Assembly (NCBI GenBank): GCA_963766795.1
Contig: CAVYBN010000004.1
Coordinates: forward strand, 11,179-75,178
DNA: 64,000 nucleotides
Direction: 5' to 3'
DNA from: Candidatus Parcubacteria bacterium
Lineage (GTDB): Bacteria > Patescibacteriota > Minisyncoccia > Phycocordibacterales > PALSA-1337
Positions 2,972 to 33,039 of the stretch are shown here, one piece after another; within the stretch, counting starts at the first letter, position 1; each line of letters starts with the position of its first letter. The position numbers were made by a program, and so were the translations under genes. Below the pieces are notes generated by a model. It was not told the DNA's origin. It saw nothing but the letters and a program-made list of their open reading frames with translations, and did not search any database.

Positions 2972-3046
2972 GATACCAAAACTTTCTTTATGATGTTATT
3001 ATATTTGTAGTTAAAGAAAAGCCTTACAATCAATAATTTTAATGCC

Positions 3047-3451
3047 ATGCCAAAGAAAAAAATCGTTATCTGCGCAAGCGCATCTTTCGAAACAGAGATA
3101 ATGGATTTGAAAGACAGACTAAAGAAAGATGGTTTTGAAGTTATTAAATACCCCACAAAAATAAAAGGTGACCTTAGTAAGGGATATGGAAAAGAGTTCC
3201 CTGAACATTATAATGCTATTACGAAAACAGATATACTGTTAGTGCTTAATTTAGACAAAAAAGGCGTACCTGGTTATATAGGTTCCGGAGTATTTGCTGA
3301 AATGGCTTTTGCAATAGGCTTAAATAAAGTTTTTAATAAGAAGATAGAAGTTTGCTATTTGTTTGATCTCCCTCCTGAAAGGAGTTTACCTTATTCTGAC
3401 GAATTGAAACTATGGGAGGATCTTGGCTGGATAAAAATTTTTAAGAAATAA
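3047..3451 (+). CDS. Nucleoside 2-deoxyribosyltransferase-like protein
   Basis: A 134-aa ORF in an AT-rich block. The pattern KKIVICASASF ... TDILLVLN ... GYIGSGVFAEMAFAIGL fits the NDT-like Rossmann family. Confidence 0.45.
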   Translation: MPKKKIVICASASFETEIMDLKDRLKKDGFEVIKYPTKIKGDLSKGYGKEFPEHYNAITKTDILLVLNLDKKGVPGYIGSGVFAEMAFAIGLNKVFNKKIEVCYLFDLPPERSLPYSDELKLWEDLGWIKIFKK

Positions 3452-3480
3452 AAGCCGTCTTGCTAGGTACGGCTTTTTTG
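3451..3480. terminator. Bidirectional hairpin terminator between convergent genes
   Basis: The stem AGCCGT ... ACGGCT is flanked by an A run and a T run. Confidence 0.65.
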
Positions 3481-3481
3481 T

Positions 3482-4789
3482 TCATAAAGAATCCTTTTGC
3501 CAATTGTCGGCGATGAATTTCTCAAGCTCTTTGTAAGCACTCTCCATTCGTTTGAAATCATCCACGCTACCCCACCAATGATGATTATTATTGTAGATAT
3601 GGAATTTACTCCAATCATGGATGTGCTCGGGTATATGCAAGTCGAAGGATTTTGCCTCTCTGAAAACATATGATCCCGGTAAAGGCGCGAACCTGAACAG
3701 AGAAACCCTTTCAACCATAGGTGCGATCTCCTTAAGAAGAGAGATCGTATCTTTTGTGCTAGCCAAATCTTCGCCAGGAAAGCCATGAATAAGGAAAATC
3801 TTGACTTTGATCCCTACAGAGTAAGATAGAGTGATAGCTTGCCGAATCTGATTACATGAGATATTTTTGCCCATAATCCGCAACATCCGCTCGCTTCCAG
3901 ACTCAACTCCGAATTTGAGTTCAATGCACCCTGCGTCACACATAATTTCGAGCAACTCATGATCAACCGTATCTATTCTAGAAAGGGCCGACCATTGCAA
4001 TCTGAGGTCCTTTATTGATTCACAAACGCTTTTTACCGCATTTTTATTGACAACAAAATTGTCGTCAACAACTGCGAAGCCTTCAATGTGATATCTCTGC
4101 TTCAGATGCTCAAGTTCCATTCTAATGTTGATACTGGAACGGTATTGAATCCTTTTTTGCAGAACCGCGCAAAAATGACAAGCGAATGGACATCCCCGGC
4201 TTAACATTACATGAGTCATTCGAGTGTCCGTGTTAGCTAGACGATTGTTCATGATGAAATCTGGTTCATCGAGCAAATGTCTGGCTGGTAAGGGAATCCA
4301 GTCGATTGACTTTTCGATTGGACGCTTCGGGGTGGTGATAACTGAGTGCTTATCCACAAAACACACACCGCTGATTTTGGAGAAATCTTTAGTGTTATGT
4401 GCACGAGTTATCTCGATGATTGTTCTTTCACCGCTTCCAATTCCGACTACATCTGCTTGAAGATCAGCAAGCGTTTCTTCTGGGAAGAAGCTCGGGTGTA
4501 CCCCACCGACTGCAACAATCTGCTTATCAGAATACACGCTCGAAAATCTTGACTCTCTTACGATCCCGTATGTCGCAGAAGATGGAATACTGAAGCCAAT
4601 AATGTCATATTCGCGAAAATCACATCGCATACTGCTTTTATTGATCTTAAAGATTTTGGCCTTGATGCCATTTTCTTCAAGAATAGCAGCAAGATACAAA
4701 ACACCGAACGGAGAGAACTCTTTTCTTTTTTCTTTGTAATGAGCAAGATCGTAAACTTCAGGATAAACTAGGGCAACTTTCATAGTCAC
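3482..4789 (-). CDS. B12-binding-domain radical SAM protein (class B)
   Basis: The N-terminal Rossmann-like region (KVALVYP...GVLYLAAILEENG) is followed by the Cx3Cx2C motif SRGCPFACHFCA. Confidence 0.75.
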   Translation of the reverse strand: MTMKVALVYPEVYDLAHYKEKRKEFSPFGVLYLAAILEENGIKAKIFKINKSSMRCDFREYDIIGFSIPSSATYGIVRESRFSSVYSDKQIVAVGGVHPSFFPEETLADLQADVVGIGSGERTIIEITRAHNTKDFSKISGVCFVDKHSVITTPKRPIEKSIDWIPLPARHLLDEPDFIMNNRLANTDTRMTHVMLSRGCPFACHFCAVLQKRIQYRSSINIRMELEHLKQRYHIEGFAVVDDNFVVNKNAVKSVCESIKDLRLQWSALSRIDTVDHELLEIMCDAGCIELKFGVESGSERMLRIMGKNISCNQIRQAITLSYSVGIKVKIFLIHGFPGEDLASTKDTISLLKEIAPMVERVSLFRFAPLPGSYVFREAKSFDLHIPEHIHDWSKFHIYNNNHHWWGSVDDFKRMESAYKELEKFIADNWQKDSL

Positions 4790-4936
4790 TCCTTTCTTTT
4801 AGTTTTAAATAGTTTTAACACAGGAAAATATCAAAGAACCTTTAAATGTAAACTAACATATTTTTAGGATATTGTATACGTAGCCAATGTAACAGCTCAA
4901 TCTCCACTCTCGCCCGCCTTCCCTGTTTTCTCGAAC

Positions 4937-6310: not shown

Positions 6311-7483
6311 ATGAATACGCCTCGAGTGCCGAAGAGCCATATGGTCTACACGATAGCCGTCATCGGCTTCATCTACACGCTCCACTTGGTCATCCCCATG
6401 TACTCGAATTCGAGCTTTCTTAGCCTGTTCGCAGACGAACAGACCGTCGGATTCATCTACATGATCGGCGCGGCCGTCTCCATCCTAGGCTTCCTTCTGG
6501 CACCGACCGTCATCCGCAGGCTCGGCAATTATACGACCACCTTATGGCTGGTGGTCATCCAGATCATCCTCTTTTACGGACTTTTGGCCACGAATGATCC
6601 CTACATCATCGCCGGCATATTCATCCTGCAGACCGCCGTCATCTCTCTCATCGGCCTCTCCCTAGACATATTCCTGGAAGTCTACACTGACGGCCAATCA
6701 GTCGGCGCGGTGCGAGGCCTTTACACGGCGACCTTGAACGCTTCGTGGGTGGTGGCGCCATTGATCGGCTCGATGCTCATCAACGGCACGAATAACTATC
6801 GCAACACTTACGTCGCCGCTCTGGCCATGCTCCTGCCATTGCTCTATCTCATATATCGGAACTTCCCGCGATTCAAGGACCCGAACTACATGCATCTCTC
6901 GCCGTGGCAGCTGGCCAAGCACGTGTCCGCGAATCGCAACTGGGTCAGTCTGTTCTTCGCCAACCTGATCCTGCAGGTCTTCTACGCCTGGATGGTCGTC
7001 TACAGCCCGATCTATCTGAACAAAGTGATAGGTTTCAGCTGGGAGTCGATCGGCATCATCTTGGTGGTCATGCTCATCCCCTTCCCTCTCATCCAATATC
7101 CGCTGGGCAAGCTGGCCGACAAGAAGTACGGCGAGAAGGAGATCATGGCGCTGGGTTTCGCCGTCATGGGCCTCTCGACCATAGCTCTGGCCTTCATCAC
7201 CTCGAACAGCGTCTTCGTATGGGCGGCAGTCTTGTTCGTGACCAGGATCGGCGCGGCTGCGGCAGAAGTCATGATGGAGGCCTATTTCTTCAAGACCGTC
7301 TCGCCGCGCGACTCCGCGGCGCTCGGCATCTTCCGCATCACCCGCCCGCTCTCGTATCTCTTCGCGCCTCTGGTGACCGTGGTCGGCCTCTTATTCACGA
7401 CCAATGAATATCTGTTCGTTATCATCGGCGCCATTTCCCTGCTCGCGCTGTGGCCGACCTTGATGATCAAGGATACCAATTAG
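6311..7483 (+). CDS. MFS-type transporter
   Basis: A 390-aa polytopic membrane protein with about 12 hydrophobic segments. Confidence 0.7.
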   Translation: MNTPRVPKSHMVYTIAVIGFIYTLHLVIPMYSNSSFLSLFADEQTVGFIYMIGAAVSILGFLLAPTVIRRLGNYTTTLWLVVIQIILFYGLLATNDPYIIAGIFILQTAVISLIGLSLDIFLEVYTDGQSVGAVRGLYTATLNASWVVAPLIGSMLINGTNNYRNTYVAALAMLLPLLYLIYRNFPRFKDPNYMHLSPWQLAKHVSANRNWVSLFFANLILQVFYAWMVVYSPIYLNKVIGFSWESIGIILVVMLIPFPLIQYPLGKLADKKYGEKEIMALGFAVMGLSTIALAFITSNSVFVWAAVLFVTRIGAAAAEVMMEAYFFKTVSPRDSAALGIFRITRPLSYLFAPLVTVVGLLFTTNEYLFVIIGAISLLALWPTLMIKDTN

Positions 7484-7650
7484 CAGGAAATTGGAAATGT
7501 AACTGATTATGAGAGGAAATTCTTTGCGACAGAGACAGACAGTTGAAATTTATGCTAAATATGCTAGTCTAATACTAGACCCATTTGGGGAGAACCTATG
7601 ACAAAATGACTCATAGGCTCGTTAATACGGAAAGAGTATGGAGTAAATTT

Positions 7651-7815
7651 ATGGATTCAAACTCTCAAGCGGTAGATGCCGTCCCATTCATGTTCAGATT
7701 TTTTGAGACCGTTCAGGTACCCAAGATCTCACCCGAATGCTCGATGGCAACCCAGTATACGACAAGCTCGGGTGGACGCGAGACCGAGTACGACGACGAT
7801 CCCGATCCGGAGTGA
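7651..7815 (+). CDS. Candidate graspetide (omega-ester peptide) precursor
   Basis: The 54-aa peptide MDSNSQAVDAVPFMFRFFETVQVPKISPECSMATQYTTSSGGRETEYDDDPDPE has GGAG 7 nt upstream of the ATG. Its leader motif PFMFRFF resembles the microviridin PFFARFL. The C-terminus is rich in Thr/Ser and Asp/Glu, and a terminator follows. Confidence 0.6.
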   Translation: MDSNSQAVDAVPFMFRFFETVQVPKISPECSMATQYTTSSGGRETEYDDDPDPE

Positions 7816-7843
7816 TTGCACAAGTCACAACCGCGGGATAACA

Positions 7844-7872
7844 CACCCCATCTTTCAGGTGGGGCCTTTTTT
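7844..7872 (+). terminator. Rho-independent terminator after the precursor ORF
   Basis: The stem CCCCA ... TGGGG is followed by CCTTTTTT. Confidence 0.6.
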
Positions 7873-7901
7873 AACATCTGAATTTATGGTAGATTCAGAC
7901 T

Positions 7902-8438
7902 ATGGAAACGGTATTACTAAAAATCGGATATGCTTTTACTGACATAATCGAAAAGAGAGAGACCTTTTTTGCCAGAAGACTGTGGCGAATAATCCTTATC
8001 TGTTATTTTATATCCCTTTCAAAAATCTTAAAAAGACGCAAATTCGATTTGTATCTAAGGATTGGCACATTATATTCAAATCTTAAAAGATATGGAAGTG
8101 CGTCATCTTATTATGGCAAAGCATCGATTCTTGCAAAAGATAATGCTGATGAAGTCCGGGTGAATATATGCCTAGGCAATCTAGCATTTTCAAAAAAATC
8201 ATATGCAGAGGCACTTGAACGCTATCGCGAATCATTAACTACAGCACGATACAAGACAACCATTTTATCTGATATCGCTTACACATATGAGGCCATGAGG
8301 GAATACAAAATGGCCATGGAATATGCTGAGCGATCTATTGAAACTTCTAGAAAGGAAACCGATTTGAACCATACGATACCGCCCGAAGAAAATGTTAAGG
8401 CGCTTATTGTCCGTTTAAAAGAAAAACTACCGGAATAA
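7902..8438 (+). CDS. TPR-repeat protein with an N-terminal hydrophobic segment
   Basis: 178 aa with repeated A..Y..A motifs (YGKASILAKDN, YAEALERYRESL, YKMAMEYAERSI). Confidence 0.55.
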   Translation: METVLLKIGYAFTDIIEKRETFFARRLWRIILICYFISLSKILKRRKFDLYLRIGTLYSNLKRYGSASSYYGKASILAKDNADEVRVNICLGNLAFSKKSYAEALERYRESLTTARYKTTILSDIAYTYEAMREYKMAMEYAERSIETSRKETDLNHTIPPEENVKALIVRLKEKLPE

Positions 8439-8460
8439 CCCGGTAGTGGCGATAAGAAGA

Positions 8461-9426
8461 TTATTTAAGCGAACGGCTCTGCAGAGCGTCTACCAATGCA
8501 TCCGTGATTTGAAGACCGGCATAATGCTCGATCCAGACCCACTGACTATTCGGGTTCATCTCGAAAAATACATAGTCTCCGGACGGAGTCACGGCGAAGT
8601 CGAATGATGCAAAGTGAATTCCAAAGGAATTCATGAACTCTATGACCTTGTGTCGAATCTCAGATGGAATAGAGATTGCTGAATGTGGAACATGCTCAAA
8701 ATCATACTTCCTCCAATCAATCTGAGTTTTCTGACTTCGTTGCGAATCGATCCTGCAGGCGAATATCAAATCATCGACTACGGTTATCCGCAATTCGAAT
8801 TCTTTTTTAATTTCTTCCTGCAAGATCATAGGGACTGCCCTGATCGATGACGATTCTGGAGCCATATTTTTCGCTAAGAGCGATGTGTATATAGCCCCAA
8901 ATGATTTTCCCTGCTTAATGATCTTGCCGAAACCGCCAAGAGTCTTGGCGATGACTGATTCATGCTTCTGTCTGAAGAGCTCGAACTCATCTGGGCTTGA
9001 GGTGATGAGGGTATCCGGAATATTGAACCCCATGTCTTTAGCGCGCTTGAGTTGAAGCATTTTATTGCCAGCCAGTCTCAAAGATGAAGCGCTATCGAGA
9101 ACTTTCGCGACTGGCAGTTGATTCAACCACCATTCCCAACACAATTTCCATTCTTGCGTCAGATAGTCAGAGATCAGTTGATTGTCATGTTTGATAGGGC
9201 GGCGAGGAACCCGACGTTGCCATACAGCTCCGATCTGATCGAGAGAAATCTCAGTGCATCCATCTGAGAGCGACCAATTATTTTTTTCCATGGGCCGGAA
9301 TGAGAAAAACCCCATTTTTCTAACCTCATCGAGGTTTATCCTCTTGTATGCCAATTGCCTTAATGTTAGTTTCTTTATGACGAAATCGGCACTTGAGTCT
9401 TCTTTACATGTAAGTATCAATATCAT
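8461..9426 (-). CDS. ATP-grasp RiPP maturase (MdnB/MdnC-like graspetide ligase)
   Basis: The N-terminus MILILTCKEDSSADFVIKKL, the motif QIDWRKYD and the C-terminal FFEMNPNSQWVWIE are typical of microviridin-type ATP-grasp ligases. Confidence 0.7.
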   Translation of the reverse strand: MILILTCKEDSSADFVIKKLTLRQLAYKRINLDEVRKMGFFSFRPMEKNNWSLSDGCTEISLDQIGAVWQRRVPRRPIKHDNQLISDYLTQEWKLCWEWWLNQLPVAKVLDSASSLRLAGNKMLQLKRAKDMGFNIPDTLITSSPDEFELFRQKHESVIAKTLGGFGKIIKQGKSFGAIYTSLLAKNMAPESSSIRAVPMILQEEIKKEFELRITVVDDLIFACRIDSQRSQKTQIDWRKYDFEHVPHSAISIPSEIRHKVIEFMNSFGIHFASFDFAVTPSGDYVFFEMNPNSQWVWIEHYAGLQITDALVDALQSRSLK

Positions 9427-9552
9427 AGCTATCCTCTTTGTTTTTTGTTTTCAAGGAATTGTTTTAAACAAGGTATTATATTTAGTCTATTCTGTCAAGG
9501 TCTAATCGCATTACAGTTTCTAGAAGTAACAACTGTATTGTGAGCACTGATG

Positions 9553-9807
9553 CTAAAACCCCACATACCCTTTCGCCTTCAAGATCGCTGCGATGGCTTC
9601 GCGGTCGGAATCAGCCGTGATCTCACCGTCGAGATCCATGGTCGGCGTCTTCGACTGGCCAGACTTGGCGACTAATTCCTTGAAATAGGCCTCATTTCCG
9701 CGGACTTCGCGCTCTTCGAATTTCACGCCCTTTTCCTTGAATAGGTCGAGAACGCCCTTGCACCACGGACAGCCGGTCTTTATATATAGGATGATGTTCA
9801 TAAACAC
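9553..9807 (-). CDS. Glutaredoxin-like protein
   Basis: Has the CPWC active site (KTGCPWCKGV) and a thioredoxin-fold length. Confidence 0.8.
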   Translation of the reverse strand: MFMNIILYIKTGCPWCKGVLDLFKEKGVKFEEREVRGNEAYFKELVAKSGQSKTPTMDLDGEITADSDREAIAAILKAKGYVGF

Positions 9808-10411: not shown

Positions 10412-11251
10412 TTATGGCAAGGAAATCCCAAATATTCTTCGAGCATTCCCAAGCAGAGCTTTCTCGACTTCCTCGAGCGGCAAGCCTTTTATCTTGGCGA
10501 TAGCCGCGACGACTTCATTGACATATGCCGGCTCGTTACGCTTGCCGCGGTGCGGCACTGGCGCCACGAACGGGCAATCGGTCTCGGCTTGGATCATGTC
10601 GAGCGGCGTGAATCGCACCAATTCCTCGTACTGCTTGGCGAAAGTGATGACGCCAGTGAATGACAGCGTGAAGCCGAGATCTAGAAAACGCTTGGCTTCT
10701 TCGAGCGTGCCGGCGAAGAAATGTGCGTTGCCTTTGATGGTCGGATGAGCAGCCAGTATTTCAAGAGCATCGGCATAGGCCTGACGGATGTGAAGCATCA
10801 GAGGCTTCTTGAATTCTTCCGCCAAGGCGATCTGGCCGTAGAACGCTTCCTTTTGACGTGCCTGCGAATCTTGCGAGAGCCGGTAGTAGTCGAGCCCGCA
10901 CTCCCCTATCCCGACGACCTTCGGATTTCTCAATAATTCACGGTACGCATCCGGATCGAATGTCTCACCGCGCGAGGTGAATTCCTTGCCGCCTTCGCCT
11001 AGCTCTTTCTCATCGTGAAATGAAGCCGAGGTGTGGATGGGATGCAGGCCGACGATGGCGTAAGCACCTTCAGGATATTTTTCCGCCAGCGCCACGGCCG
11101 ACCGCGAAGTGTCGAGCTGGGTGCCGACCGTGATGAAGGCCGTGCCGCCGTCGATCGCCCGTTTCGCCGTGGCATCGCGGTCCGCGTCGAAAGCCGCGAA
11201 GTTCAAGTGCGAGTGTATGTCGATGCGGCGGAAGGAGGGCATGGATTTCAA
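10412..11251 (-). CDS. tatD: TatD-family metal-dependent hydrolase
   Basis: IDIHSHLNF, GECGLDYYR, LMLHIR and ETDCPF motifs. Confidence 0.85.
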   Translation of the reverse strand: MKSMPSFRRIDIHSHLNFAAFDADRDATAKRAIDGGTAFITVGTQLDTSRSAVALAEKYPEGAYAIVGLHPIHTSASFHDEKELGEGGKEFTSRGETFDPDAYRELLRNPKVVGIGECGLDYYRLSQDSQARQKEAFYGQIALAEEFKKPLMLHIRQAYADALEILAAHPTIKGNAHFFAGTLEEAKRFLDLGFTLSFTGVITFAKQYEELVRFTPLDMIQAETDCPFVAPVPHRGKRNEPAYVNEVVAAIAKIKGLPLEEVEKALLGNARRIFGISLP

Positions 11252-13034
11252 TGCAACCCGATCTGATATTCATACAACCTCCGATAGACGCCGCCTTCCT
11301 TGGCGATCAATTCGTGATGCGAACCAGTCTCGACGACCTTGCCCTTCTGTAAGACCAAGATGGCGTCGGCTTTGCGCACCGTCGAGAGGCGATGGGCGAT
11401 GATGAAGGTCGTGCGTCCTTGCATGAGCTTTTCCAGGGCTCCGGTCACGATCTGCTCGGTTCCGGCATCGAGAGCGCTGGTAGGCTCATCGAGGATGAGG
11501 ATAGCCGGCGCTCGTAACATGGCCCTGGCGATGGCCACGCGCTGTTTCTGGCCGACGGAAAGCTTGATGCCGCGCTCGCCGACGATCGTCTCGTACTTCT
11601 TGGGCAGAGCGGAGACGAAATCGTCGATATGCGCCTCTTTGGACACGCGCAGGACGTCCTCGTCAGAAGCCTCGAATGAGCCGTAGCGGATATTGGCACG
11701 GATGGTATCGTTGAAAAGCGCCACTTCCTGGGGTACGACGGCGATATGCCGGCGCAAGACATTCAGATCGAGCTTCCGAGTGTCGACTCCGTCGACAGTC
11801 ACGCTTCCCTTCTCGGGGAAATAATAGCCGGAGATGAGAGAGATGGCGGTCGATTTGCCGACACCGGATTCGCCGACTAGAGCGATCGATTGCCCCGGCT
11901 TAACTATAAAATCTATATCGATAAGGACTTCAGGCTGGCCTGGACCGTAACGGAATGAGACATGATCGAATCTGACTTCGCCGGAAACATGCTCGGGCCG
12001 GACCGCTCCGGCTGGAACATACTCTTCTTCCTTCCTTTCGAATATTGTCTCGGCGCTGGCCGCGGCTGTCATGCCGTTCTGTATGACTTGCCAGCTGTTG
12101 CCCAGAGCCGCCACCGGTCCGAAGAACATCAAGGCGTATCCGTTCAAGGCTACCAGCTCGCCGACCGTGATCGAGCCGTTCGCGACCAGTCGAACAGCCA
12201 AGATGAATATGGTCAATTGGGTAAGGAAGACGATCGTGCGCTGGAAGAAATTCGACGTTGCTCCAATTGCGCTCCAATTTGACCCAGAATGCTTGCGTCC
12301 GGCCCCAAAGATTGGTGGTGGCTTTTTTGGATTCGTATTCTTCGGCAGAAGCCTGTTTGACGCTCTCGATCTGTTGGACTGACGCCGCCGAGTCATCCCA
12401 GCTCTCATTCCAGGACTTGTGCGCAGCCCTGTCGATGGCCGCCACTGGGCGCAAGATGTGCAAAAGAAGCAGGATATAGAGCAAGACGCCGAGGAGCAGG
12501 ACCGAAGCCAGAAGAGAGCTGATAGTCGCCGCCAAAGCAATGCCGATGAATATGCTTAGGAATTGCGGCACGATATTGCTGACTGTGCTCAATATCGCGG
12601 AGATCCGCCAGCCGGCCTGGCTGATCTTCTGGAGCTCTCCGTTGGTATGGGCGTTCTTGTGATATGACAAAGGCAGGCGGAACATGTGAGTGAAGCCGTC
12701 GGTTTGTATCTTAAAGTGGACGCCGACATCCACCTTCCTTCGCAAGCGGTCCGAGACCCAGTCGATATTGTTGGCGACGAGCTCGACTACGACCCAAGCG
12801 CCCAGGAATACGGCCCAGATCGGCAATGAGTTGGCTACGACCAGTCGATGCTCCGAGAGGCCGATCAGCGCGTCGAAAAAGCGGCCGGTGATATAAGGCA
12901 CGAAACCGTTGGCGATCGACGAGATCACGCCAAGGATACCCAGAGCCGTCAGTTTTCCCCGGAACGGCTGAAGATGCCGTCAAATAGCCGCCATTCCCTC
13001 GCGCGCGTGCGCGTTCTTTTTCCCGTGGTTTTCA
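11248..13034 (-). CDS. ABC transporter, fused permease/ATPase (MsbA-like); at least two frame breaks (about 12255-12300 and 12956-12968)
   Basis: Walker A GESGVGKST, signature LSVGQKQR and Walker B ILILDEPTS lie in ORF 11248-12540. The TMD is in ORF 11930-12928. The true N-terminus MKTTGKRTRTRAREWRLFDGIF lies in a third frame starting at 13034. Confidence 0.8.
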
Positions 13035-15447: not shown

Positions 15448-16530
15448 TCACCAATGGAATTCAGTCCTCCTTTTTCCCAATTCGCCGAGAAAGTCCTGCA
15501 GTGCCTGATAGAATGTGAGACACGAATCAATGCTGATATTCTCATTATCGCCGTGTATGTCTCCGCCAGTGGGCTTGATCATCAGTATCGGGATATCGAG
15601 GTCGGCAAAGTGACGCGCATCCGAAGCGCCATATGTCCCTTTTATCTGGATCTTTTTCCCGACGCTTTTTTCGAAGCATTTGATGAACATCTTGACTACA
15701 GGTTCATTGATATCAACCGAGGTCGGACTGCCGATTGAGTGTGTCGATATCTTGAGCGAAGAGTCGATCTTCCTGGCTAAAGCTGATACCTCGTCGCGAA
15801 TCGCCTTGAATGTAGTCGTCTCCGGGAATCTGAAATCTAGGATCGCGTATGCTTCAGGGCATACCTGATTGGCAGAAATGCCGCCTTGGAGCTTCCCGAT
15901 ATTGACCGTTGTCTTCCAAGATTCTCTTCGATTGTTTTGTTTATATCTCTTAAGCACCGCGCCGCACAGAGCGATTATCGGTTCGAGAGCGTTCTTGCCG
16001 TCCCATATCCTGGACGAGTGAGCCGGCGTGCCAGTCGCATCTATACGCAACGCACATACGCCTTTAGATCTATTTACGAATATGAGATCGTCTCCGCCAT
16101 CCGGCACGATCAGGACTTTAGGCCTTAGCTTGTATTGTTTAGCCAGATAAGCGGCTCCTTCGAATCCCCCTGTCTCTTCATCCGTGGTCACGATAAAGGC
16201 GAATGAGATGTCCGATTTTCTTTCAATGAGCTCATTCAACAGCGCATATCCCATGGGAATGGAGAATTTCATATCGCTTACGCCTCGCCCGTAGGCGATT
16301 CCCTTTTTGATAGTCATCTTGAATTGGGCGGGCTTTCCAGCCACGACATCCGCGTGTACTAGAAAACACACATCCGGATCGCGCGTATCTATATTCGAAG
16401 CAATAAAAGATTCCGCATTGCCGTTCTTGATTCTCTTTACGATCGCCTTCTTGCTTATCTTTGACTCGATGAAATCAAGCGCTTTCCTGTTCTGATCGAT
16501 GTCAGATCGTGAGCGTCTTGAATGATACAA
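15448..16530 (-). CDS. M20-family metallopeptidase (ArgE/DapE/ACY1-like)
   Basis: HADVV, GRGVSDMK and TTDEETGG motifs. Confidence 0.75.
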   Translation of the reverse strand: MYHSRRSRSDIDQNRKALDFIESKISKKAIVKRIKNGNAESFIASNIDTRDPDVCFLVHADVVAGKPAQFKMTIKKGIAYGRGVSDMKFSIPMGYALLNELIERKSDISFAFIVTTDEETGGFEGAAYLAKQYKLRPKVLIVPDGGDDLIFVNRSKGVCALRIDATGTPAHSSRIWDGKNALEPIIALCGAVLKRYKQNNRRESWKTTVNIGKLQGGISANQVCPEAYAILDFRFPETTTFKAIRDEVSALARKIDSSLKISTHSIGSPTSVDINEPVVKMFIKCFEKSVGKKIQIKGTYGASDARHFADLDIPILMIKPTGGDIHGDNENISIDSCLTFYQALQDFLGELGKRRTEFHW

Positions 16531-18181: not shown

Positions 18182-19219
18182 TTAGAATTCTGCGAACACT
18201 TTCTTGGATCGCGAGTCGATTCTGACCATGCCGCCATAAGGTAAAGGGATCTGTGGTTCGGTGTGACCAAAGTCCATGTTTTGCAGGATCGGAGCAGTCT
18301 TGTTATACATGCGGATGATCTGGATGGTCGTCTCGCGTTGCTCCTTGCGATACTCCTTTCGTTCGTCCGGATTCTTCTGTTTGTCGTATTCCCACGATTT
18401 CGGCCTGCCGACCAGCACGGCTTTCACGCGTTCCAAGATACCCCTCTCTCCGAGAGCGCGATACACTCTGGACACATAGCTTGCCGGTGATATTTCTTCG
18501 CACGTTTCCGTGAATAGGACGATGTCTTCAAATTCGCTCAATTCAGGGATGCGCGAGCCGTGTCGAAGCATTTCGTCAATGGATTCGAGACAACCTCCCC
18601 ATGTTCTTCCTACGACACGACCTTCCCCATCCCAGAACCAACCGTCATTCTTCTCGTACGCGAGTTCCTTATCCATGTTTGATGGATCATTCCAATCGAG
18701 TCCGATGTCGTTGAACATCTCACTCGAGGTGAGCTCGACTTCGCCAGCTTCGAAAAGCGCCTTCTTGATATACCCAACGGTGAACGGATCCATGTGCCCA
18801 TTCAAGGCAAATTGAGTGTGCAGGGAGGCGCCATAATACGACGGTATGCCCGCAAGCCACAGGAAATTCGCGAAGTGAGTATTGTCGCTGTATCCGAAGA
18901 ATGGTTTCGGGTGTGCTTTGAATGGCGCGATCGGCAGATTTTTGACGTATGTGACCTGATCATCGCCGCCGATGGATGTGATCACGGCCCTTATGGAATG
19001 ATCTTCGAATGCGCGAATTAGGTCGGCAGACCTTTCCTCCTTGCTCGCCCCGAGCTTCTTCGTCGTCGGGAATTCAACCGGCTCAAGGCCGAAGATATCC
19101 CGCAGACGCGTCAGACCGAGTTCATACATATGCGGCCATTGTCCAGGAGCCGCGAATGACGGTGAAAGTATCGCCACCTTATCTCCCGCTTTAAGTTTGT
19201 TTAATTTGGTAAAGTTCAT
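18182..19219 (-). CDS. LD-carboxypeptidase / MccF-like S66 peptidase
   Basis: LKAGDKVAILSPS ... RAVITSIGGDD ... FGHTEPQ. Confidence 0.8.
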   Translation of the reverse strand: MNFTKLNKLKAGDKVAILSPSFAAPGQWPHMYELGLTRLRDIFGLEPVEFPTTKKLGASKEERSADLIRAFEDHSIRAVITSIGGDDQVTYVKNLPIAPFKAHPKPFFGYSDNTHFANFLWLAGIPSYYGASLHTQFALNGHMDPFTVGYIKKALFEAGEVELTSSEMFNDIGLDWNDPSNMDKELAYEKNDGWFWDGEGRVVGRTWGGCLESIDEMLRHGSRIPELSEFEDIVLFTETCEEISPASYVSRVYRALGERGILERVKAVLVGRPKSWEYDKQKNPDERKEYRKEQRETTIQIIRMYNKTAPILQNMDFGHTEPQIPLPYGGMVRIDSRSKKVFAEF

Positions 19220-19261
19220 AATATTAATATTACCATAATAAAAATATGATTATCTGTCAAC

Positions 19262-19400
19262 ACTCCGGGATCGAAGTGCTACCGATATGCTGGATATCGA
19301 GAAGATATGAGCCGAAGATCTCTCTTATCAGCCGGGCTTCATTCTCATATAGATCTTTCCATTCGTCTGAATGCGCCACCAATAGGGTATTTTTAATCAT
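19262..19400 (-). pseudogene. Truncated 5' fragment of a GrpB-family gene
   Basis: The minus strand reads MIKNTLLVAHSDEWKDLYENEARLIREIFGSYLLDIQHIGSTSIPG and then degenerates. Confidence 0.55.
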
Positions 19401-19401
19401 G
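19359..19401. repeat. Direct repeat, left copy (43 bp), bounding the AT-rich island
   Basis: CCATTCGTCTGAATGCGCCACCAATAGGGTATTTTTAATCATG matches 24463-24505 at 40 of 43 positions. Confidence 0.9.
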
Positions 19402-19460
19402 AGATGATATCATTTTTTATAAACATTTTTTATTCCCAGTCTTAATTTATTTAATAGCAT

Positions 19461-20555
19461 TCATTGTTTTTGCTTGAAATAAGAATACGGAATAGCCTCT
19501 CTTCCCAACTTTTTAATTATTCTATTTATTGAAACATATGATTGCGAAGCCAAAGTAATAAACTGGTTATCAATAAAGAAAACCTTTACACAAGAAAAAA
19601 ATTTTGACAAAACAAACTCCTGGTAATACCATGGCCACCTTTTTAAGCTCCTCATATCTCCCATTAAAATATGCTGATTAAAAAGCGCCTCGGGCATTGA
19701 CGATTGGATAAGCAAAATTCCATTTTTTCCTAGACTTTTCTTTAATTCGGGTCCTTTATATTTGATAAATGGTGGTTGCGCCCCATAAAAAACACCTACA
19801 CTAATTAAACTTACATTATCAGGAAAACTCATTTTTTTACAATCCTGAAAATTGAAAAAAACTTCAATCTTGCTTTTTTTCGCTATTTTTCTTAAATAAG
19901 TATTTAAATGCAATTTAAGATCCTGACTTAATTCGTTTACTATAACCTTTTTGGGGCTGTAATTTTTTAAAACAAACGCACTTAACTCTCCAGTCCCTGA
20001 CCCTATGTCAATAAAACAGTTAATTTTTTTTAAGGTGTCACAGGATGCCCTGAGAACCTTCAGCATGCTTTTTTCTGGACCAATAAACATACCCCCTCCT
20101 TCCTTTAGAGCAAATTTAACATCAAATTCTTTCACCATCTCTTTATAAAAACTCGAGTCAGTTTTTTCGATATCAAGTATCTCCATGCCTAATGGATTTC
20201 TTTTATCTTTTTTATATTTTGTATGATTGACTTTTTCTTTATTATCATCAACATGTAACAATGGAATAAAGCCAACGGCTAGATCTACAAATAATTTCAA
20301 TCCAGACTTTGTTAAACGATCTTTCCAGTCACTTCTTATTTTCCTGTATCTTGGATAAATTTCCCTTGAAAAGCTTCCTCTTCCAAGTATATTTTTATTT
20401 TGAAAAATTATATAATATGTGACACAAGGTATTTTATTTTTTTGTGATGTGTATGTCTGGATATTTACACACTTTGAATAAAGTATCTTTCCACCAATAC
20501 TTTCAAAAAATAATTTAGTTATTTTATCTGCTTTTGTTATATTGGCTTGTTTCAT
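19461..20555 (-). CDS. Protein with a C-terminal class I SAM-dependent methyltransferase domain
   Basis: Motif I is FIDIGSGTGELS. The N-terminal region of about 170 aa has no recognisable motif. Confidence 0.55.
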   Translation of the reverse strand: MKQANITKADKITKLFFESIGGKILYSKCVNIQTYTSQKNKIPCVTYYIIFQNKNILGRGSFSREIYPRYRKIRSDWKDRLTKSGLKLFVDLAVGFIPLLHVDDNKEKVNHTKYKKDKRNPLGMEILDIEKTDSSFYKEMVKEFDVKFALKEGGGMFIGPEKSMLKVLRASCDTLKKINCFIDIGSGTGELSAFVLKNYSPKKVIVNELSQDLKLHLNTYLRKIAKKSKIEVFFNFQDCKKMSFPDNVSLISVGVFYGAQPPFIKYKGPELKKSLGKNGILLIQSSMPEALFNQHILMGDMRSLKRWPWYYQEFVLSKFFSCVKVFFIDNQFITLASQSYVSINRIIKKLGREAIPYSYFKQKQ

Positions 20556-20582
20556 AATAATTATTAATAATATCTTATTATA

Positions 20583-21725
20583 TTATTCGATATAATAAGA
20601 ATGGGGTTCATTCCTAACATTTTCTATTCTTACATCCCAGTTTACACCAAGACTTTCTTTTATTTTTTTTATTATTAAATCAATATCATGATAATCCTCA
20701 GATAGGATAGAATACATTGTCGGCCCTAAAGAGCTCATGCCCAAAAATGGCACTTTATCCTTGAAGGAATCATTACCAGACATAAAGCTATTCCTTACTT
20801 CATATCTTTTGGCAGGATTAAGATTATCTTCCATCATCATTAAAGGTGGTTTTTGTTCATCGGAAATCAAAACATACTTACAGTTTCCTAGTCTTTTCCA
20901 TTTAAAAATTAATTGGTTCTTTAATAAATTCATAATCTTCATTAATGCTTTTTTGTTTAATTCTAATTCAATTTTTTTCGTTCCAAATCTAACAATATCA
21001 AGCAAGTTATCAATAAATTCAAAATAGTTTTTATCTAACAATCCTGGGATCAGGCCCATTAGAGTATTTGTGCAGATTGCCTCAACTTCCGAAAGTGGAA
21101 CTGGGGTATTTGATATAAATAAGCTACTTTCATCTATTTCATTATTTAGAGAGATGGAGGTTGGTATTATTAAAAGTATTTTCCATCTTTTGGGAAATTT
21201 ATACCTGCCAATCAACATAGGAGGGCAAGATGCATGATCACCAAATGTTTTCTTTTCCTCATTGGGTCCCATTTTATACCCACCATCGACTATCAAGCCT
21301 CCATACATAAATGAGTAGTAGCCTATTCCAGAAACCCCCGCCCTGTTAGTAACAAAAGCAATTTTCTTTAATGAGATTTTCTTTTTATACAATAAGGCAA
21401 TACCTCTGCCTATACATAGTCCTAATTGGGTTCCGCTACCCAAACCAACATGTGTTTTAAAAGATTTTTTTATGTTTATCTTAACTCCAGAAGATAGTTT
21501 CAAATATTTAATTATACTATTAGCAAAATGGCATGCTTTATTTTGTAAATAATCATTACCTCCAATTACAACTATTTTATCGCAAAATGAAAATTCTATT
21601 TCCAAAAAAAGATTGTCTACTGCCAACCCAACACCACCACAACCCCTACCACCAATTTGATTCATTTTTAAACTATTAAAATGGAGTCTTGCAGATGATC
21701 TAAGAATGACTTTTCTTGAATTCAT
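20583..21725 (-). CDS. Beta-ribofuranosylaminobenzene-5'-phosphate (beta-RFAP) synthase-like GHMP-superfamily protein
   Basis: SSARLHFNSLKMNQIGGRGCGGVGLAV and HVGLGSGTQLGL match the family pattern RLH..l....GR..GG.G and GLGSGTQL. Confidence 0.55.
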   Translation of the reverse strand: MNSRKVILRSSARLHFNSLKMNQIGGRGCGGVGLAVDNLFLEIEFSFCDKIVVIGGNDYLQNKACHFANSIIKYLKLSSGVKINIKKSFKTHVGLGSGTQLGLCIGRGIALLYKKKISLKKIAFVTNRAGVSGIGYYSFMYGGLIVDGGYKMGPNEEKKTFGDHASCPPMLIGRYKFPKRWKILLIIPTSISLNNEIDESSLFISNTPVPLSEVEAICTNTLMGLIPGLLDKNYFEFIDNLLDIVRFGTKKIELELNKKALMKIMNLLKNQLIFKWKRLGNCKYVLISDEQKPPLMMMEDNLNPAKRYEVRNSFMSGNDSFKDKVPFLGMSSLGPTMYSILSEDYHDIDLIIKKIKESLGVNWDVRIENVRNEPHSYYIE

Positions 21726-21751
21726 AATTTTTAATAAGAAATAAGGTAAAT

Positions 21752-22774
21752 TTAAATGTTTTTTACATTCTCATTAACCAATTTTAATGCTTTATTTAAT
21801 TTTAATTTATATTTCTTAGTGTTAAGATTTGGTATCGCCTTCCCGCCCAGAAGCCCACACGCAAGCTTGTCTTCTTTTCCAAACGATATAAATTTTTTAA
21901 CCTCAAACCCTGCTTTTTCAAGTATTTCCTTAAGTTCATTTACCTTTTTTTCGTCAATATATTTATTGGTTCCAATTAGATTACTCGGATTATACTCACA
22001 TAAAATTACTCTGTGATACTTTGGATTCAATAGTTTAATTAAATCTTTTACTTCTTTTTTTGATGTTGTAGTAAATGGACCATCTCCACATAACACAGCT
22101 TTCTCAAACATCAAGAAATTTACAACAACTTTTATTCCCGAAACTTTTGCATATTTCTCCGAAGAAGAAATGACTTCTTTTAGCGGATAAATTTTATTTA
22201 TGGGCATAATCTGATCTCTGTCGTTTACGCTATGGACCGACAGGTGCAAAAGAATCTTGGCATTTCCAAAATCTCCTCTAGCAAAATCGTTTGCAAGCTT
22301 TTTGATAATCTGCGGATTCCCACTTGTAGCAAAAATGTGTCTATAGGTTTCAGATCCCAATTTTTTTACAATTAAATCGGTCCCGACAATCGCTGCTTTA
22401 ACTTTTTCATAAGAAAAGCTAGGTTCCCCTTGGCCCATATAAGCAAACTCCCTTCTATTTTTAGAATAATCAGTAATTTCGTCATCAAGCATCATAAAAA
22501 TATTTTGAAACGCTATTTCCCTACTACTTAAAAGCCTTAAAAAAGGAATGGTGTTTCCTGTAACACAAAATTTACATTGATTGCATTTTTGCGACAAAAT
22601 ACAACCCAAAGACACAGATGTGGTATACGCTCTTATGTTCTCATCAGGTGTCCCCTTGCCTAATTTTGTTCTTCTTAAAAAAGCACCGCTTTCAATATAA
22701 TAATCGTTTTTTCCATCAATTTCCCATGCATATCTAATACCTTCTTCGCCACATTTATTAACATATTTTCCCAC
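21752..22774 (-). CDS. Radical SAM enzyme of the RlmN/Cfr-like methyltransferase architecture
   Basis: The blocks GCILSQKCNQCKFCVTG, YMGQGEPSF, FATSG, LHLSVHSVND, RVILCEYNPS and C-terminal KLACGLLG parallel the RlmN blocks GC..gC.FC.TG, MGMGEP, STsG, LAiSLHA, NLIP.N and ACGQL. Confidence 0.6.
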   Translation of the reverse strand: MGKYVNKCGEEGIRYAWEIDGKNDYYIESGAFLRRTKLGKGTPDENIRAYTTSVSLGCILSQKCNQCKFCVTGNTIPFLRLLSSREIAFQNIFMMLDDEITDYSKNRREFAYMGQGEPSFSYEKVKAAIVGTDLIVKKLGSETYRHIFATSGNPQIIKKLANDFARGDFGNAKILLHLSVHSVNDRDQIMPINKIYPLKEVISSSEKYAKVSGIKVVVNFLMFEKAVLCGDGPFTTTSKKEVKDLIKLLNPKYHRVILCEYNPSNLIGTNKYIDEKKVNELKEILEKAGFEVKKFISFGKEDKLACGLLGGKAIPNLNTKKYKLKLNKALKLVNENVKNI

Positions 22775-22812
22775 AAGTTTTATATTTATTTTTTTTCATA
22801 TTATTGAGGTAA

Positions 22813-23781
22813 TCAATTACTAACAAAAACGCGATTTGCACAGGCCGCCTCACACGGCTGGCATCTATACCAGTACCTATCATTAATAATATTTTTCACC
22901 ATAATTTTTAACTTTGGGTTTTTTCCTTCAATCGATTTTAATACATTAATTATACCGTCCGCAGGGAGTTTTTTGCCTAAATCTGAATTCAATAATTTTT
23001 CTAACCTTAAACGAAATTTCAATGATTGCCCCGGCAAAGAAAGTTTTGTTATAGGAACAGGATGATAGCACCCATACCAAAAACCATCAATTGCCAACAA
23101 CAATGAATCACCAATTAGGCATTTAAAGTTATTCGGTTTTTCTGTAATCGTATACCCTTTTCCTTTAATGGCTGAGGGAAGAAAAACAGCTCTCCCAGTG
23201 GCAGTTACATTTTTTTTCACAATAGTTAACCCCTTATCTTGATATTTTTTCTTAAATTTTTCAAACAATTTATTGTCTCTTCGGTTGGATGTCCACCTAA
23301 TATTTAACTCAAACTTATACTTGTTTTTATGTTCAATAAAATAATCAACTAAATTAGAAGTCCCATTTTTCTTTATAAAAATTTCCTTATATTTTTTTTC
23401 TTTTCTTAGTATTCCTTGGTTATGAAAAATGTCTATGCTTATATCATAAATATCGGCATTTAATAATTTAAATAATAGCGGATTCTCAAGAAAACTTAAG
23501 CCATTTGTATCTATTCTAATTTTAGAAAATTTGTAATTCGCTTTAATTGTTTTAACAATTTTAGCTATATTTGGATGTAAAGTTGGCTCACCACCAGTAA
23601 TTATAAAATTATTAATCTTATTTATTCCTGACTTCTTTAGGTCGGCTAGGGCATCATTAATTTGGGTTAAGGTTAGCTTTTCTTTCTTTTTTGGCGAAGA
23701 ACTGAAAAAACAGTGAGGACAAGATTGATCACATTCTTTTATTATTTGAAAAACTACATGGTTAAATTCTTTTTTTATCAT
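22813..23781 (-). CDS. Radical SAM protein with a C-terminal Cys cluster (possible auxiliary Fe-S / SPASM-twitch-like)
   Basis: Has CDQSCPHC (Cx3Cx2C), GGEPTL and a C-terminal CQPCEAAC. Confidence 0.65.
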   Translation of the reverse strand: MIKKEFNHVVFQIIKECDQSCPHCFFSSSPKKKEKLTLTQINDALADLKKSGINKINNFIITGGEPTLHPNIAKIVKTIKANYKFSKIRIDTNGLSFLENPLLFKLLNADIYDISIDIFHNQGILRKEKKYKEIFIKKNGTSNLVDYFIEHKNKYKFELNIRWTSNRRDNKLFEKFKKKYQDKGLTIVKKNVTATGRAVFLPSAIKGKGYTITEKPNNFKCLIGDSLLLAIDGFWYGCYHPVPITKLSLPGQSLKFRLRLEKLLNSDLGKKLPADGIINVLKSIEGKNPKLKIMVKNIINDRYWYRCQPCEAACANRVFVSN

Positions 23782-24113
23782 TTTATTATTTTACTGCATT
23801 TTGCACAATCTCCTCTGCAAAATACTCTAGTGTTATATTTTTTACATATATGATGAAAGTTCATGTTTTTATTTGAAAAAAATATGTAAAACATTGGACA
23901 TAGTCCCAAATCAACTCCTTTTTGTTGAATTTTATAATCCAAATATAATTGCTCATCTAATGTAAGATCTTGAATCTCAGCCTTTAAAACATTCACTTTA
24001 GAAACAATATCTCTGATTTTTCCAAATCTTTCTGATATTGTTTCCATCTTATTTAAATCTTCAATATACCCACCATCCTTAAAATCTCTAAATATTTCAT
24101 CTACTAAATGCAT
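23778..24113 (-). CDS. 111-aa Cys-rich hypothetical protein, translationally coupled to the radical SAM gene
   Basis: There is a 4-nt stop/start overlap. The C-terminus is CPMF...HHICKKYNTRVFCRGDCAKCSK. Confidence 0.45.
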   Translation of the reverse strand: MHLVDEIFRDFKDGGYIEDLNKMETISERFGKIRDIVSKVNVLKAEIQDLTLDEQLYLDYKIQQKGVDLGLCPMFYIFFSNKNMNFHHICKKYNTRVFCRGDCAKCSKIIK

Positions 24114-24188
24114 ATATTCTTAATATTATTAAATGTTTATAAATTTCGTCAAAATACTTTCTTAGATAATCAAGATAAATATCATTTT

Positions 24189-24413
24189 TTATTTTGATAG
24201 TTTAATGGCTTGAGCCGGGCAACCTTTTACAACTTCTATTATCTTCTTCTGCTGGTTAGCGGATATATTAATCGACGAAGATGTTAAGAGCTTACCTTTT
24301 TGCTTTATTTTTGCTTTAAATTTTTTAATATCAAATTTAAACAGGTTAGGAATACATGTACTGCAATAACCACACCCGGCACATTTTTTTTGGTCAATCG
24401 AAAGATGTGACAT
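24189..24413 (-). CDS. Small single-cluster 4Fe-4S ferredoxin
   Basis: IDQKKCAGCGYCSTCIP ... GCPAQAI. The start is taken at MSHLSI. Confidence 0.65.
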   Translation of the reverse strand: MSHLSIDQKKCAGCGYCSTCIPNLFKFDIKKFKAKIKQKGKLLTSSSINISANQQKKIIEVVKGCPAQAIKLSK

Positions 24414-24462
24414 GAACTGAATTATACATAAAACACTTGAAATATTCAAACTTATAAATAAC

Positions 24463-24505
24463 CCATTCGTCTGAATGCGCTACTAATAGAGTATTTTTAA
24501 TCATG
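24463..24505. repeat. Direct repeat, right copy (43 bp)
   Basis: CCATTCGTCTGAATGCGCTACTAATAGAGTATTTTTAATCATG encodes the same MIKNTLLVAHSDEW. The three differences from the left copy are all synonymous. Confidence 0.9.
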
Positions 24506-24783
24506 GGATAAGTATACCAAATAAAATTTTATCTGCAGACCGCGTAGGATGTTATTCGAACGGGCTTAAGCCATACTCGCATTTGACAAACATGGGCGTG
24601 TCAGTTAGCATATTGACTATGCTTAATAAGCATTTCAGCCTGAATATGTGCTCTAACACCCTCGCTGGGTGGTCGCTTTGCGTTGCCGGCATCGGTTTTT
24701 ATCCGGATACGCAAGAGCTTATATTCAGCCGCGATGCTTCTAACTCATAAGATATAAACATATTTCTTCTGATAATTAAAAGG

Positions 24784-24813
24784 ATTCCGGCTGAATGAAA
24801 GCCGGGATTTTTC
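24784..24813 (+). terminator. Rho-independent terminator or attenuator upstream of the MFS gene
   Basis: A 9-bp stem ATTCCGGCT / AGCCGGGAT is followed by TTTTT. Confidence 0.6.
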
Positions 24814-24883
24814 ATTTAGCACAGTTCTTTGTAATAGTCCCTGAACAAAAGATAATAACCGCAAAAAATAGAAAGGTTCAGTC

Positions 24884-30044: not shown

Positions 30045-30133
30045 GACGGTAATGATGCGCTAAAAATGTAGGAAAATCAAGCGCACTGGTATATTTTCAT
30101 AATGCGGATTACGAATAACTACCAATCAGAATT

Positions 30134-32914: not shown

Positions 32915-33039
32915 GAGATGTGTAACCTTAAGTTACAATAAATTTATAGTTAGCTTTTGTGTCCATGGTATCACTCATCTTATGAAAGTAAAGGGGTATT
33001 CTTTCCAAAACTGTGGATAACTATGATTAGCATATATCT

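Follow-up and report, generated by a model that had tools for sequence, protein, structure and literature searches.

The stretch of DNA analyzed here, 64,000 nucleotides of contig CAVYBN010000004.1 from a Candidatus Parcubacteria bacterium, is referred to as the window, and all positions and strands are given relative to this whole window. Within 7640-9504 lie three closely packed genes, which encode a short precursor peptide, a tetratricopeptide repeat (TPR) protein and an ATP-grasp ligase. A preliminary description of the DNA had proposed that they form a graspetide-type locus for a peptide that is made on the ribosome and modified after translation (RiPP), and the family of the ligase, the conservation of the precursor and the signature of its core all support that proposal. 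The locus is read in the present work as a compact biosynthetic locus for a graspetide (an omega-ester-containing RiPP) of the type associated with the Candidate Phyla Radiation (CPR, or Patescibacteria), with a probability that we put at roughly 0.85. The observations that carry this reading are the gene content, the ligase family, the conservation of the precursor and its co-inheritance with the ligase, and the selection acting on the precursor core; the number and linkage of the rings, what the TPR protein does, and the removal of the leader, export and bioactivity are inferred. The features of the locus are these:

7640..7643, + strand: Shine-Dalgarno sequence GGAG, 7 nt before the precursor ATG (sequence reading)
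7651..7815, + strand: precursor peptide gene, 54 aa plus stop (open reading frame list)
7684..7707, + strand: leader recognition motif PFMFRFFE, residues 12-19 (P12/F13 conservation; weak Inhibitor_I10 match)
7750..7812, + strand: predicted core peptide TQYTTSSGGRETEYDDDPDPE, residues 34-54 (alignment invariants; match to TxxxTx(6-10)Dx(1-4)D)
7846..7873 (hairpin 7846-7864), + strand: intrinsic-terminator-like hairpin and T run after the precursor gene (8-bp stem, 5 GC pairs)
7902..8438, + strand: TPR protein gene, 178 aa (Pfam TPR matches)
8426..8447, - strand: terminator-like hairpin just past the ligase stop (9-bp stem, 5 GC pairs, T-rich minus-strand tail)
8461..9426, - strand: ATP-grasp graspetide synthetase (macrocyclase), 321 aa, with MvdD-type pre-ATP-grasp domain (NCBIfam, Pfam, PDB, AlphaFold2)
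9475..9504, - strand: putative sigma-70-like promoter ahead of the ligase gene (by match to the consensus alone)

The precursor gene has its own Shine-Dalgarno sequence and terminator, as had been described. After the terminator-like hairpin comes CCTTTTTTAA; the element could serve as an attenuator for the TPR gene behind it. Directly before the TPR start codon, at 7877-7900, stands a 7-bp inverted repeat (TCTGAAT...ATTCAGA), possibly a hairpin with a regulatory role, placed between precursor terminator and TPR gene. The terminator hairpin of the ligase gene overlaps the last codons of the convergent TPR gene, whose stop codon is at 8436-8438, and the promoter match upstream of the ligase (TAGACC, an 18-nt spacer and TATAAT) agrees with the consensus at 10 of 12 positions, in a region where the number of such sites is not above the shuffled expectation.

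The ligase and its precursor

The convergent 321-residue gene had been described as an ATP-grasp macrocyclase of the MdnB/MdnC type on the strength of the motifs LILTCKEDSSADFV, QIDWRKYD and FFEMNPNSQWVWIE, all of which are present in the open reading frame, and maturase models, solved structures and predicted fold agree with this assignment. Full-length NCBIfam matches are obtained to TIGR04187 ("ATP-grasp ribosomal peptide maturase", 1e-64), MvdC (2e-57), MvdD (6e-49) and the grasp-with-spasm maturase (1.5e-37), with RimK at 5e-12 and glutathione synthase at 7e-5, and the Pfam MvdD pre-ATP-grasp domain PF21068 scores 28.8 against a gathering cut-off of 27. When a profile of 22 homologues is searched against the PDB, the matches to MdnB (6e-68), MdnC (1e-64), AMdnB and CdnC are all at about 1e-65, and six graspetide synthetases (MdnB, AMdnB, MdnC, CdnC, PruB and PsnB) rank before LysX/ArgX (1.7e-4). 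The AlphaFold2 model of the ligase (predicted local distance difference test, pLDDT, 87.9) has the complex of MdnC with MdnA as its best Foldseek match (TM 0.82), followed by CdnC (0.80), AMdnB, MdnB, PruB and PsnB (0.76), with RimK, LysX and ArgX at 0.58-0.66.

The residues expected of such an enzyme are also in place. A study of PsnB reported that Arg72, Arg213 and a D(F/W)R loop are conserved across graspetide ligases (bioRxiv 10.1101/2021.03.09.434688); R71, R213 and D237-W238-R239 of the window ligase are their counterparts, matched by motif context. Neither they nor the Mg-binding residues D276, E289 and N291 vary among the 22 homologues, and the motifs can be aligned with MdnB. Annotations of the nearest homologues read Patescibacteria, Paceibacterota or Saccharibacteria. 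Judged by sequence and by the modelled fold, the ligase is a graspetide synthetase and not a RimK- or GshB-type enzyme; NCBIfam, the PDB profile and Foldseek all favour the graspetide synthetases, and clustering with RimK or glutathione-synthetase enzymes is not seen in any of the three.

The precursor open reading frame, from the ATG at 7651 to the stop that ends at 7815, translates to MDSNSQAVDAVPFMFRFFETVQVPKISPECSMATQYTTSSGGRETEYDDDPDPE. Its residues 12-18, PFMFRFF, had been likened to the microviridin leader helix, a likeness that holds, and they also fit the leader signature Phhx(1,2)h. The stretch YTTSSGGRETEYDDDPDPE contains five Thr/Ser and seven Asp/Glu residues, so that the earlier count of donors and acceptors is correct; the core itself, however, starts at T34, two residues before the "YTT..." at which it had been placed.

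A protein search finds an identical peptide on record (P0089) and three homologues, in which the leaders are 40-60% identical and the C-terminal 18 residues, TQYTTSSGGRETEYDDDP, are identical. The comparison was extended to 95 loci (given L numbers below), which consist of the DNA around ligase homologues from species-representative genomes and metagenomes and which were scanned for precursors in six frames. Related precursors stand beside ligases of 46-64% identity in L002, L003, L007, L020 and L021, and the small open reading frame is conserved next to homologous ligases in no fewer than six independent loci of Patescibacteria type. An exhaustive profile search of 1.84 billion cluster representatives yields only seven genuine precursor clusters. 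Most of its other matches are long proteins with several matching stretches, and those that were fetched are translated DNA repeats, which were rejected as precursors. The database proteins P0098, P0102, P0105 and P0106, which are false positives of the precursor profile, as is P0126, carry repeated FQFTTSHGGR / FNSRPHTEVD / LSIHDLTRRST units and look like a DNA repeat array translated in several frames.

An alignment of ten precursors from the clade of the window ligase (clade A, defined below) separates a divergent leader from a nearly invariant core. The leaders have little in common apart from the PF(L/M)F.FF helix motif, with P12 and V21 invariant and F13 nearly so. The core follows the consensus T-x-Y-[ST]-T-x-S-G-x-R-E-x-x-[YF]-D-x-D-P, in which T34, Y36, T38, S40, R43, E44, D48, D50 and P51 are invariant. 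In pairwise comparison with the window, the core codons differ by 5-11 synonymous and 0-5 non-synonymous changes per 16 codons (11 and 1 for L021, 7 and 0 for L002), a pattern which shows, at the level of the coding sequence, that purifying selection acts on the core.

The published signatures of CPR graspetides are matched specifically. The core signature TxxxTx(6-10)Dx(1-4)D is matched by 10/10 clade-A precursors via T34, T38, D48 and D50, and a strict regular expression for Phhx(1,2)h fits 8/10 of their leaders (in the window through P12-F-M-F-R-F), the other two reading PFLFRSF and PLLFRSF. Among the 339 small open reading frames of the window, 1 fits the core signature, and the precursor is the only one that has both this signature and the leader motif. 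The curated precursor models TIGR04186 GRASP_targ, TIGR04497 GRASP_targ_2 and PF12559 Inhibitor_I10 are reached by 0/10 clade-A precursors; a weak match of the leader to Inhibitor_I10 (E 0.03; 15 bits, where the cut-off is 21) occurs in 1/10 family members. Taken at the sequence level, the conservation and placement of the small open reading frame show that it is a real precursor co-inherited with the ligase.

Accessory proteins, related clades and the surrounding genes

The protein encoded at 7902-8438, between precursor and ligase, matches Pfam TPR_1, TPR_2 and TPR_12 at about 1e-9 and begins with a hydrophobic helix, which is followed by about 3.5 TPR repeats and, at the C-terminus, a further helix. 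Its AlphaFold2 model (pLDDT 86) is a generic TPR solenoid whose best matches are CTPR and LGN. The preliminary description was right about its TPR identity and its position, but the membrane anchor also ascribed to it is not established: averaged over the best 19 residues, Kyte-Doolittle hydropathy comes to 1.0-1.7 in four orthologues, compared to about 2.3 for the MFS helices of the neighbouring transporter, and although the model has a helix at residues about 22-42, an anchor is no more than possible. Only four orthologues, at about 50% identity, are found among 5.8 billion proteins. The gene lies between precursor and ligase in the window, in L002/L017 and in L007, and it adjoins the ligase in L008/L016, whose contig stops short of any precursor; every copy with readable neighbours adjoins a ligase of the window clade, in 4 independent loci.

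In L003 the same slot is filled by a DUF6624 protein (Pfam 1e-23), and a weak DUF6624 relative is present in L020 and L021. The idea that TPR and DUF6624 proteins are distant homologues was rejected (hhalign probability 0.1%). Proteins of the DUF6624 family stand next to ligases of the window family in L003 (6033-6479, - strand), L034, L055, L056, L064-66, L078 and L094, and His, Asp, Arg and Gln residues are invariant in their alignment, in keeping with a published proposal that the family is an undiscovered enzyme.

The TPR protein is a clade-specific accessory, and most likely a peptide- or ligase-binding partner or a scaffold. The competing proposal is a minimal two-gene system in which maturation of the peptide requires the ligase only and the TPR protein, as a bystander, a regulator or an immunity factor, does not contribute to cyclisation, and its chances fall only a little short of even. 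Most characterised graspetide synthetases do work alone (PMC13097080), the TPR fold is generic, the slot is taken by a non-homologous protein in sister clade-A loci, and in the loci of two sister clades precursor and ligase occur without a TPR or DUF6624 match nearby. These points have to be set against the extreme rarity of the TPR orthologue, against the finding that each copy whose neighbours can be read adjoins this ligase clade and lies on the precursor strand, and against the precedent of partner-dependent synthetases, among which MirB, a TIGR04187-type enzyme, requires MirC (PMC13097080).

The sister clades also show how the core varies with the ligase. In a neighbour-joining tree of 76 ligases, clade A is monophyletic and is sister to two further clades, B and C, whose precursors retain the leader helix and a shortened version of the core: in clade B the helix is PLMFQLREF and the core YMSKSTGCAGREDEYDD, and in clade C they are PLVFQLREL and HMTQSSCGGEDTYE. 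More distant ligases (31-35% identity) are accompanied by cores such as TFVETDTGGHGDTD. Core type thus tracks ligase phylogeny, as expected of enzyme-substrate pairs.

Two further features of the sister-clade cores were observed. One clade-C precursor (L030, 5029-5238, + strand) carries two tandem core copies (…HMTQSSCGGEDTYDSDETEPRTMHMTQSSCGGEDTYE) and is a multi-core graspetide of this ligase family. A conserved Cys occurs in cores of the sister clades (STGCAGRED and TQSSCGGED, e.g. L023 3270-3410 and L010 4137-4271), and clade C has the pattern TxxxC where clade A has TxxxT; a thioester or other Cys-based link in the clade B and C cores is a possibility.

Two genes adjoin the three-gene block:

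6311-7483, + strand: major facilitator superfamily (MFS) transporter (Pfam MFS_1, 2e-21), immediately upstream of the precursor gene
9553-9807, - strand: glutaredoxin, beyond the ligase gene

The position of the MFS gene is as the preliminary description gave it, but its membership of the system is not supported, with no homologue in any other ligase locus (tblastn E<=0.01) and a GC content like that of the flanks. Two more distant candidates were also set aside. An MsbA-like ATP-binding cassette (ABC) exporter at 11248-12928 (- strand) was considered as a peptidase-containing ABC transporter (PCAT), but it is without a C39 peptidase domain and is split over two reading frames, with an ABC_membrane part at 11930-12928 and an ABC_tran part at 11248-12540 in two overlapping open reading frames; the split could reflect a frameshift, a pseudogene or a fault in the assembly. 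About 6 kb distant and unlinked is the M20 peptidase at 15448-16530, which was considered as a leader peptidase.

The block had been described as more AT-rich than its flanks, which is correct for the TPR gene (36% GC), the ligase gene (44%) and the spacers (32-36%), compared to 52-57% in flanking genes, but not for the precursor gene, which at 53% GC is unlike the AT-rich TPR-ligase block. Judged by base composition, this two-gene block looks horizontally acquired. Over its full length the window is mosaic in GC content and contains several other low-GC islands. The stretches at 19000-25000 and 30000-33000 have 28-36% GC and a strongly negative GC skew in a window that is otherwise 50-58% GC; these stretches and the graspetide block give the contig its mosaic composition. 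Another low-GC island, at 2972-4800 (38-42% GC), begins right after tRNA-Arg(CCT) at 2897-2971 and looks like a tRNA-adjacent acquired island. Its genes are a B12-binding radical SAM enzyme at 3482-4789 (- strand; Pfam Radical_SAM 1e-17, B12-binding 2.5e-11) and a 134-aa open reading frame at 3047-3451 (+ strand); no peptide substrate was found for it in a reading of the open reading frame list only.

Predicted rings and product

Published graspetide enzymology involves leader-dependent activation of the enzyme and an acyl-phosphate intermediate, with Arg213 escorting the acceptor carboxylate (PMC13097080; bioRxiv 10.1101/2021.03.09.434688). On this scheme, the amphipathic PFMFRFFE leader helix would dock on the ligase's leader-binding domain, in the manner of the MdnA leader on MdnC, and the ligase would use ATP to phosphorylate core carboxylates in turn, the strongest candidates being E44, D48 and D50. 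The hydroxyls of T34 and T38, and possibly those of S40, T37 or T45, would then attack the acyl phosphates to form macrolactones, with the loss of 18 Da per ring, and two to three rings would be expected. No lactam would be formed, because the core is without Lys, which fits the presence of one ligase only. The TPR gene, in the slot that DUF6624 proteins occupy in sister loci, would be co-transcribed downstream of the attenuator-like terminator.

The candidate donors are thus T34, T37, T38, S40 and T45, and the candidate acceptors E44, D48 and D50. Natural variants narrow the choice: S39 is replaced by Asn in L020-type precursors, E46 by Gly in L003, L007 and P0125, D49 by Pro in P0125, and Y47 by Phe in two members. 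Because such variants replace them, S39, E46, Y47 and D49 are unlikely to be ring-forming residues. The most likely arrangement would be a nested hairpin, with T38-D48 inside T34-D50 and possibly a small S40-E44 ring, because the G41-G42 turn lies between the donors and the acceptors.

The rings might instead be interlocked in a cage-like arrangement (e.g. T34-D48 crossing T38-D50, as in microviridin or rosaritide), or there might be two rings only. In rosaritide, S-S-x-T donors and D-x-D-x-D acceptors give interlocking rings (PMC13097080), a comparable cluster of donors and a D-x-D cluster of acceptors occur in the window core, and the ligase is nearest in sequence to the cage-forming MdnB and MdnC. 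The G-G turn midway between donors and acceptors and the compactness of the core nevertheless suggest hairpin-type cores such as that of plesiocin, and clade C has only the short TQSSCGGED motif, which would permit small nested rings; an interlocked or two-ring product is accordingly regarded as doubtful, though far from negligible, and the nested hairpin is preferred.

Going by the graspetides that have been characterised, the product is most likely a constrained peptide that inhibits a protease: all of those for which a bioactivity had been reported by 2022 were protease inhibitors (PMC8939145). R43, an invariant residue of the loop, might by the same analogy be the P1 residue, a suggestion that is speculative. 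The cyclised peptide could alternatively be a signal or regulator of the producer's own proteins, acting inside the cell or at the symbiont-host interface, and not an exported inhibitor. The island has no exporter, peptidase or immunity gene, rosaritide caused no growth inhibition in the organisms tested (PMC13097080), and Makarova et al. speculate on roles in CPR-host interactions (PMC8939145). Such a role is unlikely in view of the uniform record of protease inhibition just cited and of the GG that precedes the core in some relatives, which is typical of exported peptides. A more far-reaching proposal, that the rare clade A makes a tricyclic hairpin graspetide of a kind not seen before, with the TPR protein as an obligate synthetase partner interchangeable with DUF6624, and that the product, with its Gly-Gly-Arg-Glu loop, is an ultrasmall episymbiont's protease inhibitor used on its host, is improbable as a whole. 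If it were true, the TPR protein would be a second, non-homologous solution to the partner-protein dependence found for MirB/MirC.

Several points weigh against the reading of the locus as a graspetide locus of CPR type. No named NCBIfam maturase family is reached by the ligase at its curated cut-off (218.7 bits against 350 for TIGR04187, 194.7 against 425 for MvdC and 166.9 against 475 for MvdD), and because of this it is not assignable to a characterised subgroup with transferable chemistry; by sequence, it is within the graspetide synthetase superfamily and outside all curated subfamilies. The TPR protein may be dispensable, because sister loci have the non-homologous DUF6624 protein in its place. 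The leader cleavage site is uncertain, because residues -2/-1 of the core are GG in some relatives and MA in the window. The locus contains no leader peptidase or dedicated exporter, and the neighbouring MFS gene is not conserved with the system. In the literature searched, finally, no dehydration, ring mapping or activity is reported for any CPR/Patescibacteria graspetide, and no paper was found that joins the terms "graspetide" and "Patescibacteria". The remaining alternative, that the ATP-grasp protein is a housekeeping RimK-, GshB- or LysX-type ligase beside a chance 54-aa open reading frame, could appeal to weak sub-threshold Pfam RimK and GSH-S_ATP matches (E 0.01-0.08) and to the label "glutathione synthase/RimK-type ligase-like" given to some homologues in database sources, but it is effectively refuted in silico, by sequence and by model, by maturase matches more than 50 orders of magnitude ahead of RimK, by best PDB and fold matches that are all graspetide synthetases, and by a small open reading frame that is conserved, co-located and under purifying selection.

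The locus is apparently an intact and horizontally mobile graspetide module of CPR type. Because CPR genomes are tiny and yet the module is retained and horizontally shared, it probably matters for the symbiotic or parasitic lifestyle of these organisms. With three genes in less than 1.8 kb and a near-invariant 18-residue core, it is a minimal system and a convenient entry point, useful for working out the ring pattern behind TxxxT...DxD, the role of the TPR or DUF6624 partner and the inhibition target of the peptide. Graspetide chemistry as it is known is unchanged by this locus.

Comparison with known graspetide systems

The closest solved structures and sequences to the window ligase are those of the microviridin system (MdnA/MdnB/MdnC, group 1). 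The leader PFMFRFF resembles the PFFARFL helix, and the ester-forming chemistry would, by analogy, be alike. The systems differ in that the window core, as the preliminary description had stated, is outside the microviridin consensus TxKxPSDx(E/D)(E/D), with no Lys and no PSD motif; in that the window has a single ligase and not a pair of ester-forming and amide-forming enzymes; in the absence of a GNAT or ABC partner gene at the window locus; and in the scores of the ligase, which lie far below the MvdC and MvdD equivalog cut-offs.

With plesiocin and PsnB (group 2) and other hairpin-type systems the window would share, by analogy, the formation of several esters by one ligase, and it does share a compact core in which N-terminal donors, a turn and C-terminal acceptors follow one another, as well as the conserved Arg residues and D(F/W)R loop of the ligase. 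PsnB is, however, more distant from the window ligase (E 3e-14, TM 0.76), and the plesiocin core is a repeated TTxxxxEE with Glu acceptors, whereas the window core is single, has both Asp and Glu acceptors and has a longer loop.

The rosaritide system (MirB/MirC, group 21) resembles the window in that TIGR04187, the family of MirB, is the best NCBIfam model for the window ligase, in that the donor cluster is Ser/Thr-rich and the acceptors are spaced D-x-D, and in that a small, non-enzymatic-looking accessory protein is conserved in the window-type locus. The accessory is nevertheless a TPR protein in the window and a PpiC-type peptidyl-prolyl isomerase in rosaritide, no PCAT transporter is present at the window locus, and the ligase remains well below the TIGR04187 cut-off.

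Carter et al. 2026 (PMC13097080) widened RODEO to 43 groups, of which groups 27 and 42 belong to candidate phyla, identified DUF6624 as a recurrent unexplained partner and described the first partner-protein-dependent synthetases. Group 42 comprises 22 biosynthetic gene clusters from candidate phyla, with DUF6624 (PMC13097080), and it is similar to the window family in its hosts, in its DUF6624 accessory, which is also found in the sister locus L003, and in its short precursors with an aromatic-T-T core start (representative ...GFTTHGTPNDPDSGGTD). Its representative differs in its leader, PLILDRL, and in its core, which does not fit the TxxxT...DxD signature. The leader and core motifs of the representative are absent in all 95 loci, which, on this comparison with the representative alone, speaks against an identity of the window family with group 42.

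Two CPR branches of graspetide loci had already been described by Makarova et al. 2022 (PMC8939145), so that the preliminary statement that RiPP clusters are uncommon in CPR-like genomes is outdated for graspetides (PMC8939145, PMC13097080). Branch 1 is marked by Phhx(1,2)h leaders, by the core TxxxTx(6-10)Dx(1-4)D and by neighbouring genes that often encode TPR or "cluster 23" proteins (PMC8939145). The window precursor has the leader motif within its first 30 residues and the core signature via T34, T38, D48 and D50; the nearest homologues of its ligase are from Patescibacteria; TPR proteins are encoded in the window, L002, L007 and L008; DUF6624, which is probably "cluster 23" of Makarova et al. 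2022, is encoded in L003, with weak matches in L020 and L021; and there is one ligase and no lactam-forming Lys. Where the window stands apart from branch 1 is in the 9-residue loop from the second Thr to the first Asp, which holds an S-G-G-R-E segment. At the level of sequence, the locus fits branch 1 by its leader, core signature and TPR neighbours. The new ring topology that had been proposed would consequently be new relative to microviridin, but the motif class to which it belongs was already catalogued (PMC8939145). Neither core nor leader strings from clades A, B, C and E were found in the searchable text of the Makarova 2022 and Carter 2026 supplements, and the window family may be an additional precursor cluster beyond Makarova 2022. 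What is new here is an uncatalogued precursor family with a rare TPR accessory, in a branch already known from bioinformatics and experimentally uncharacterised.

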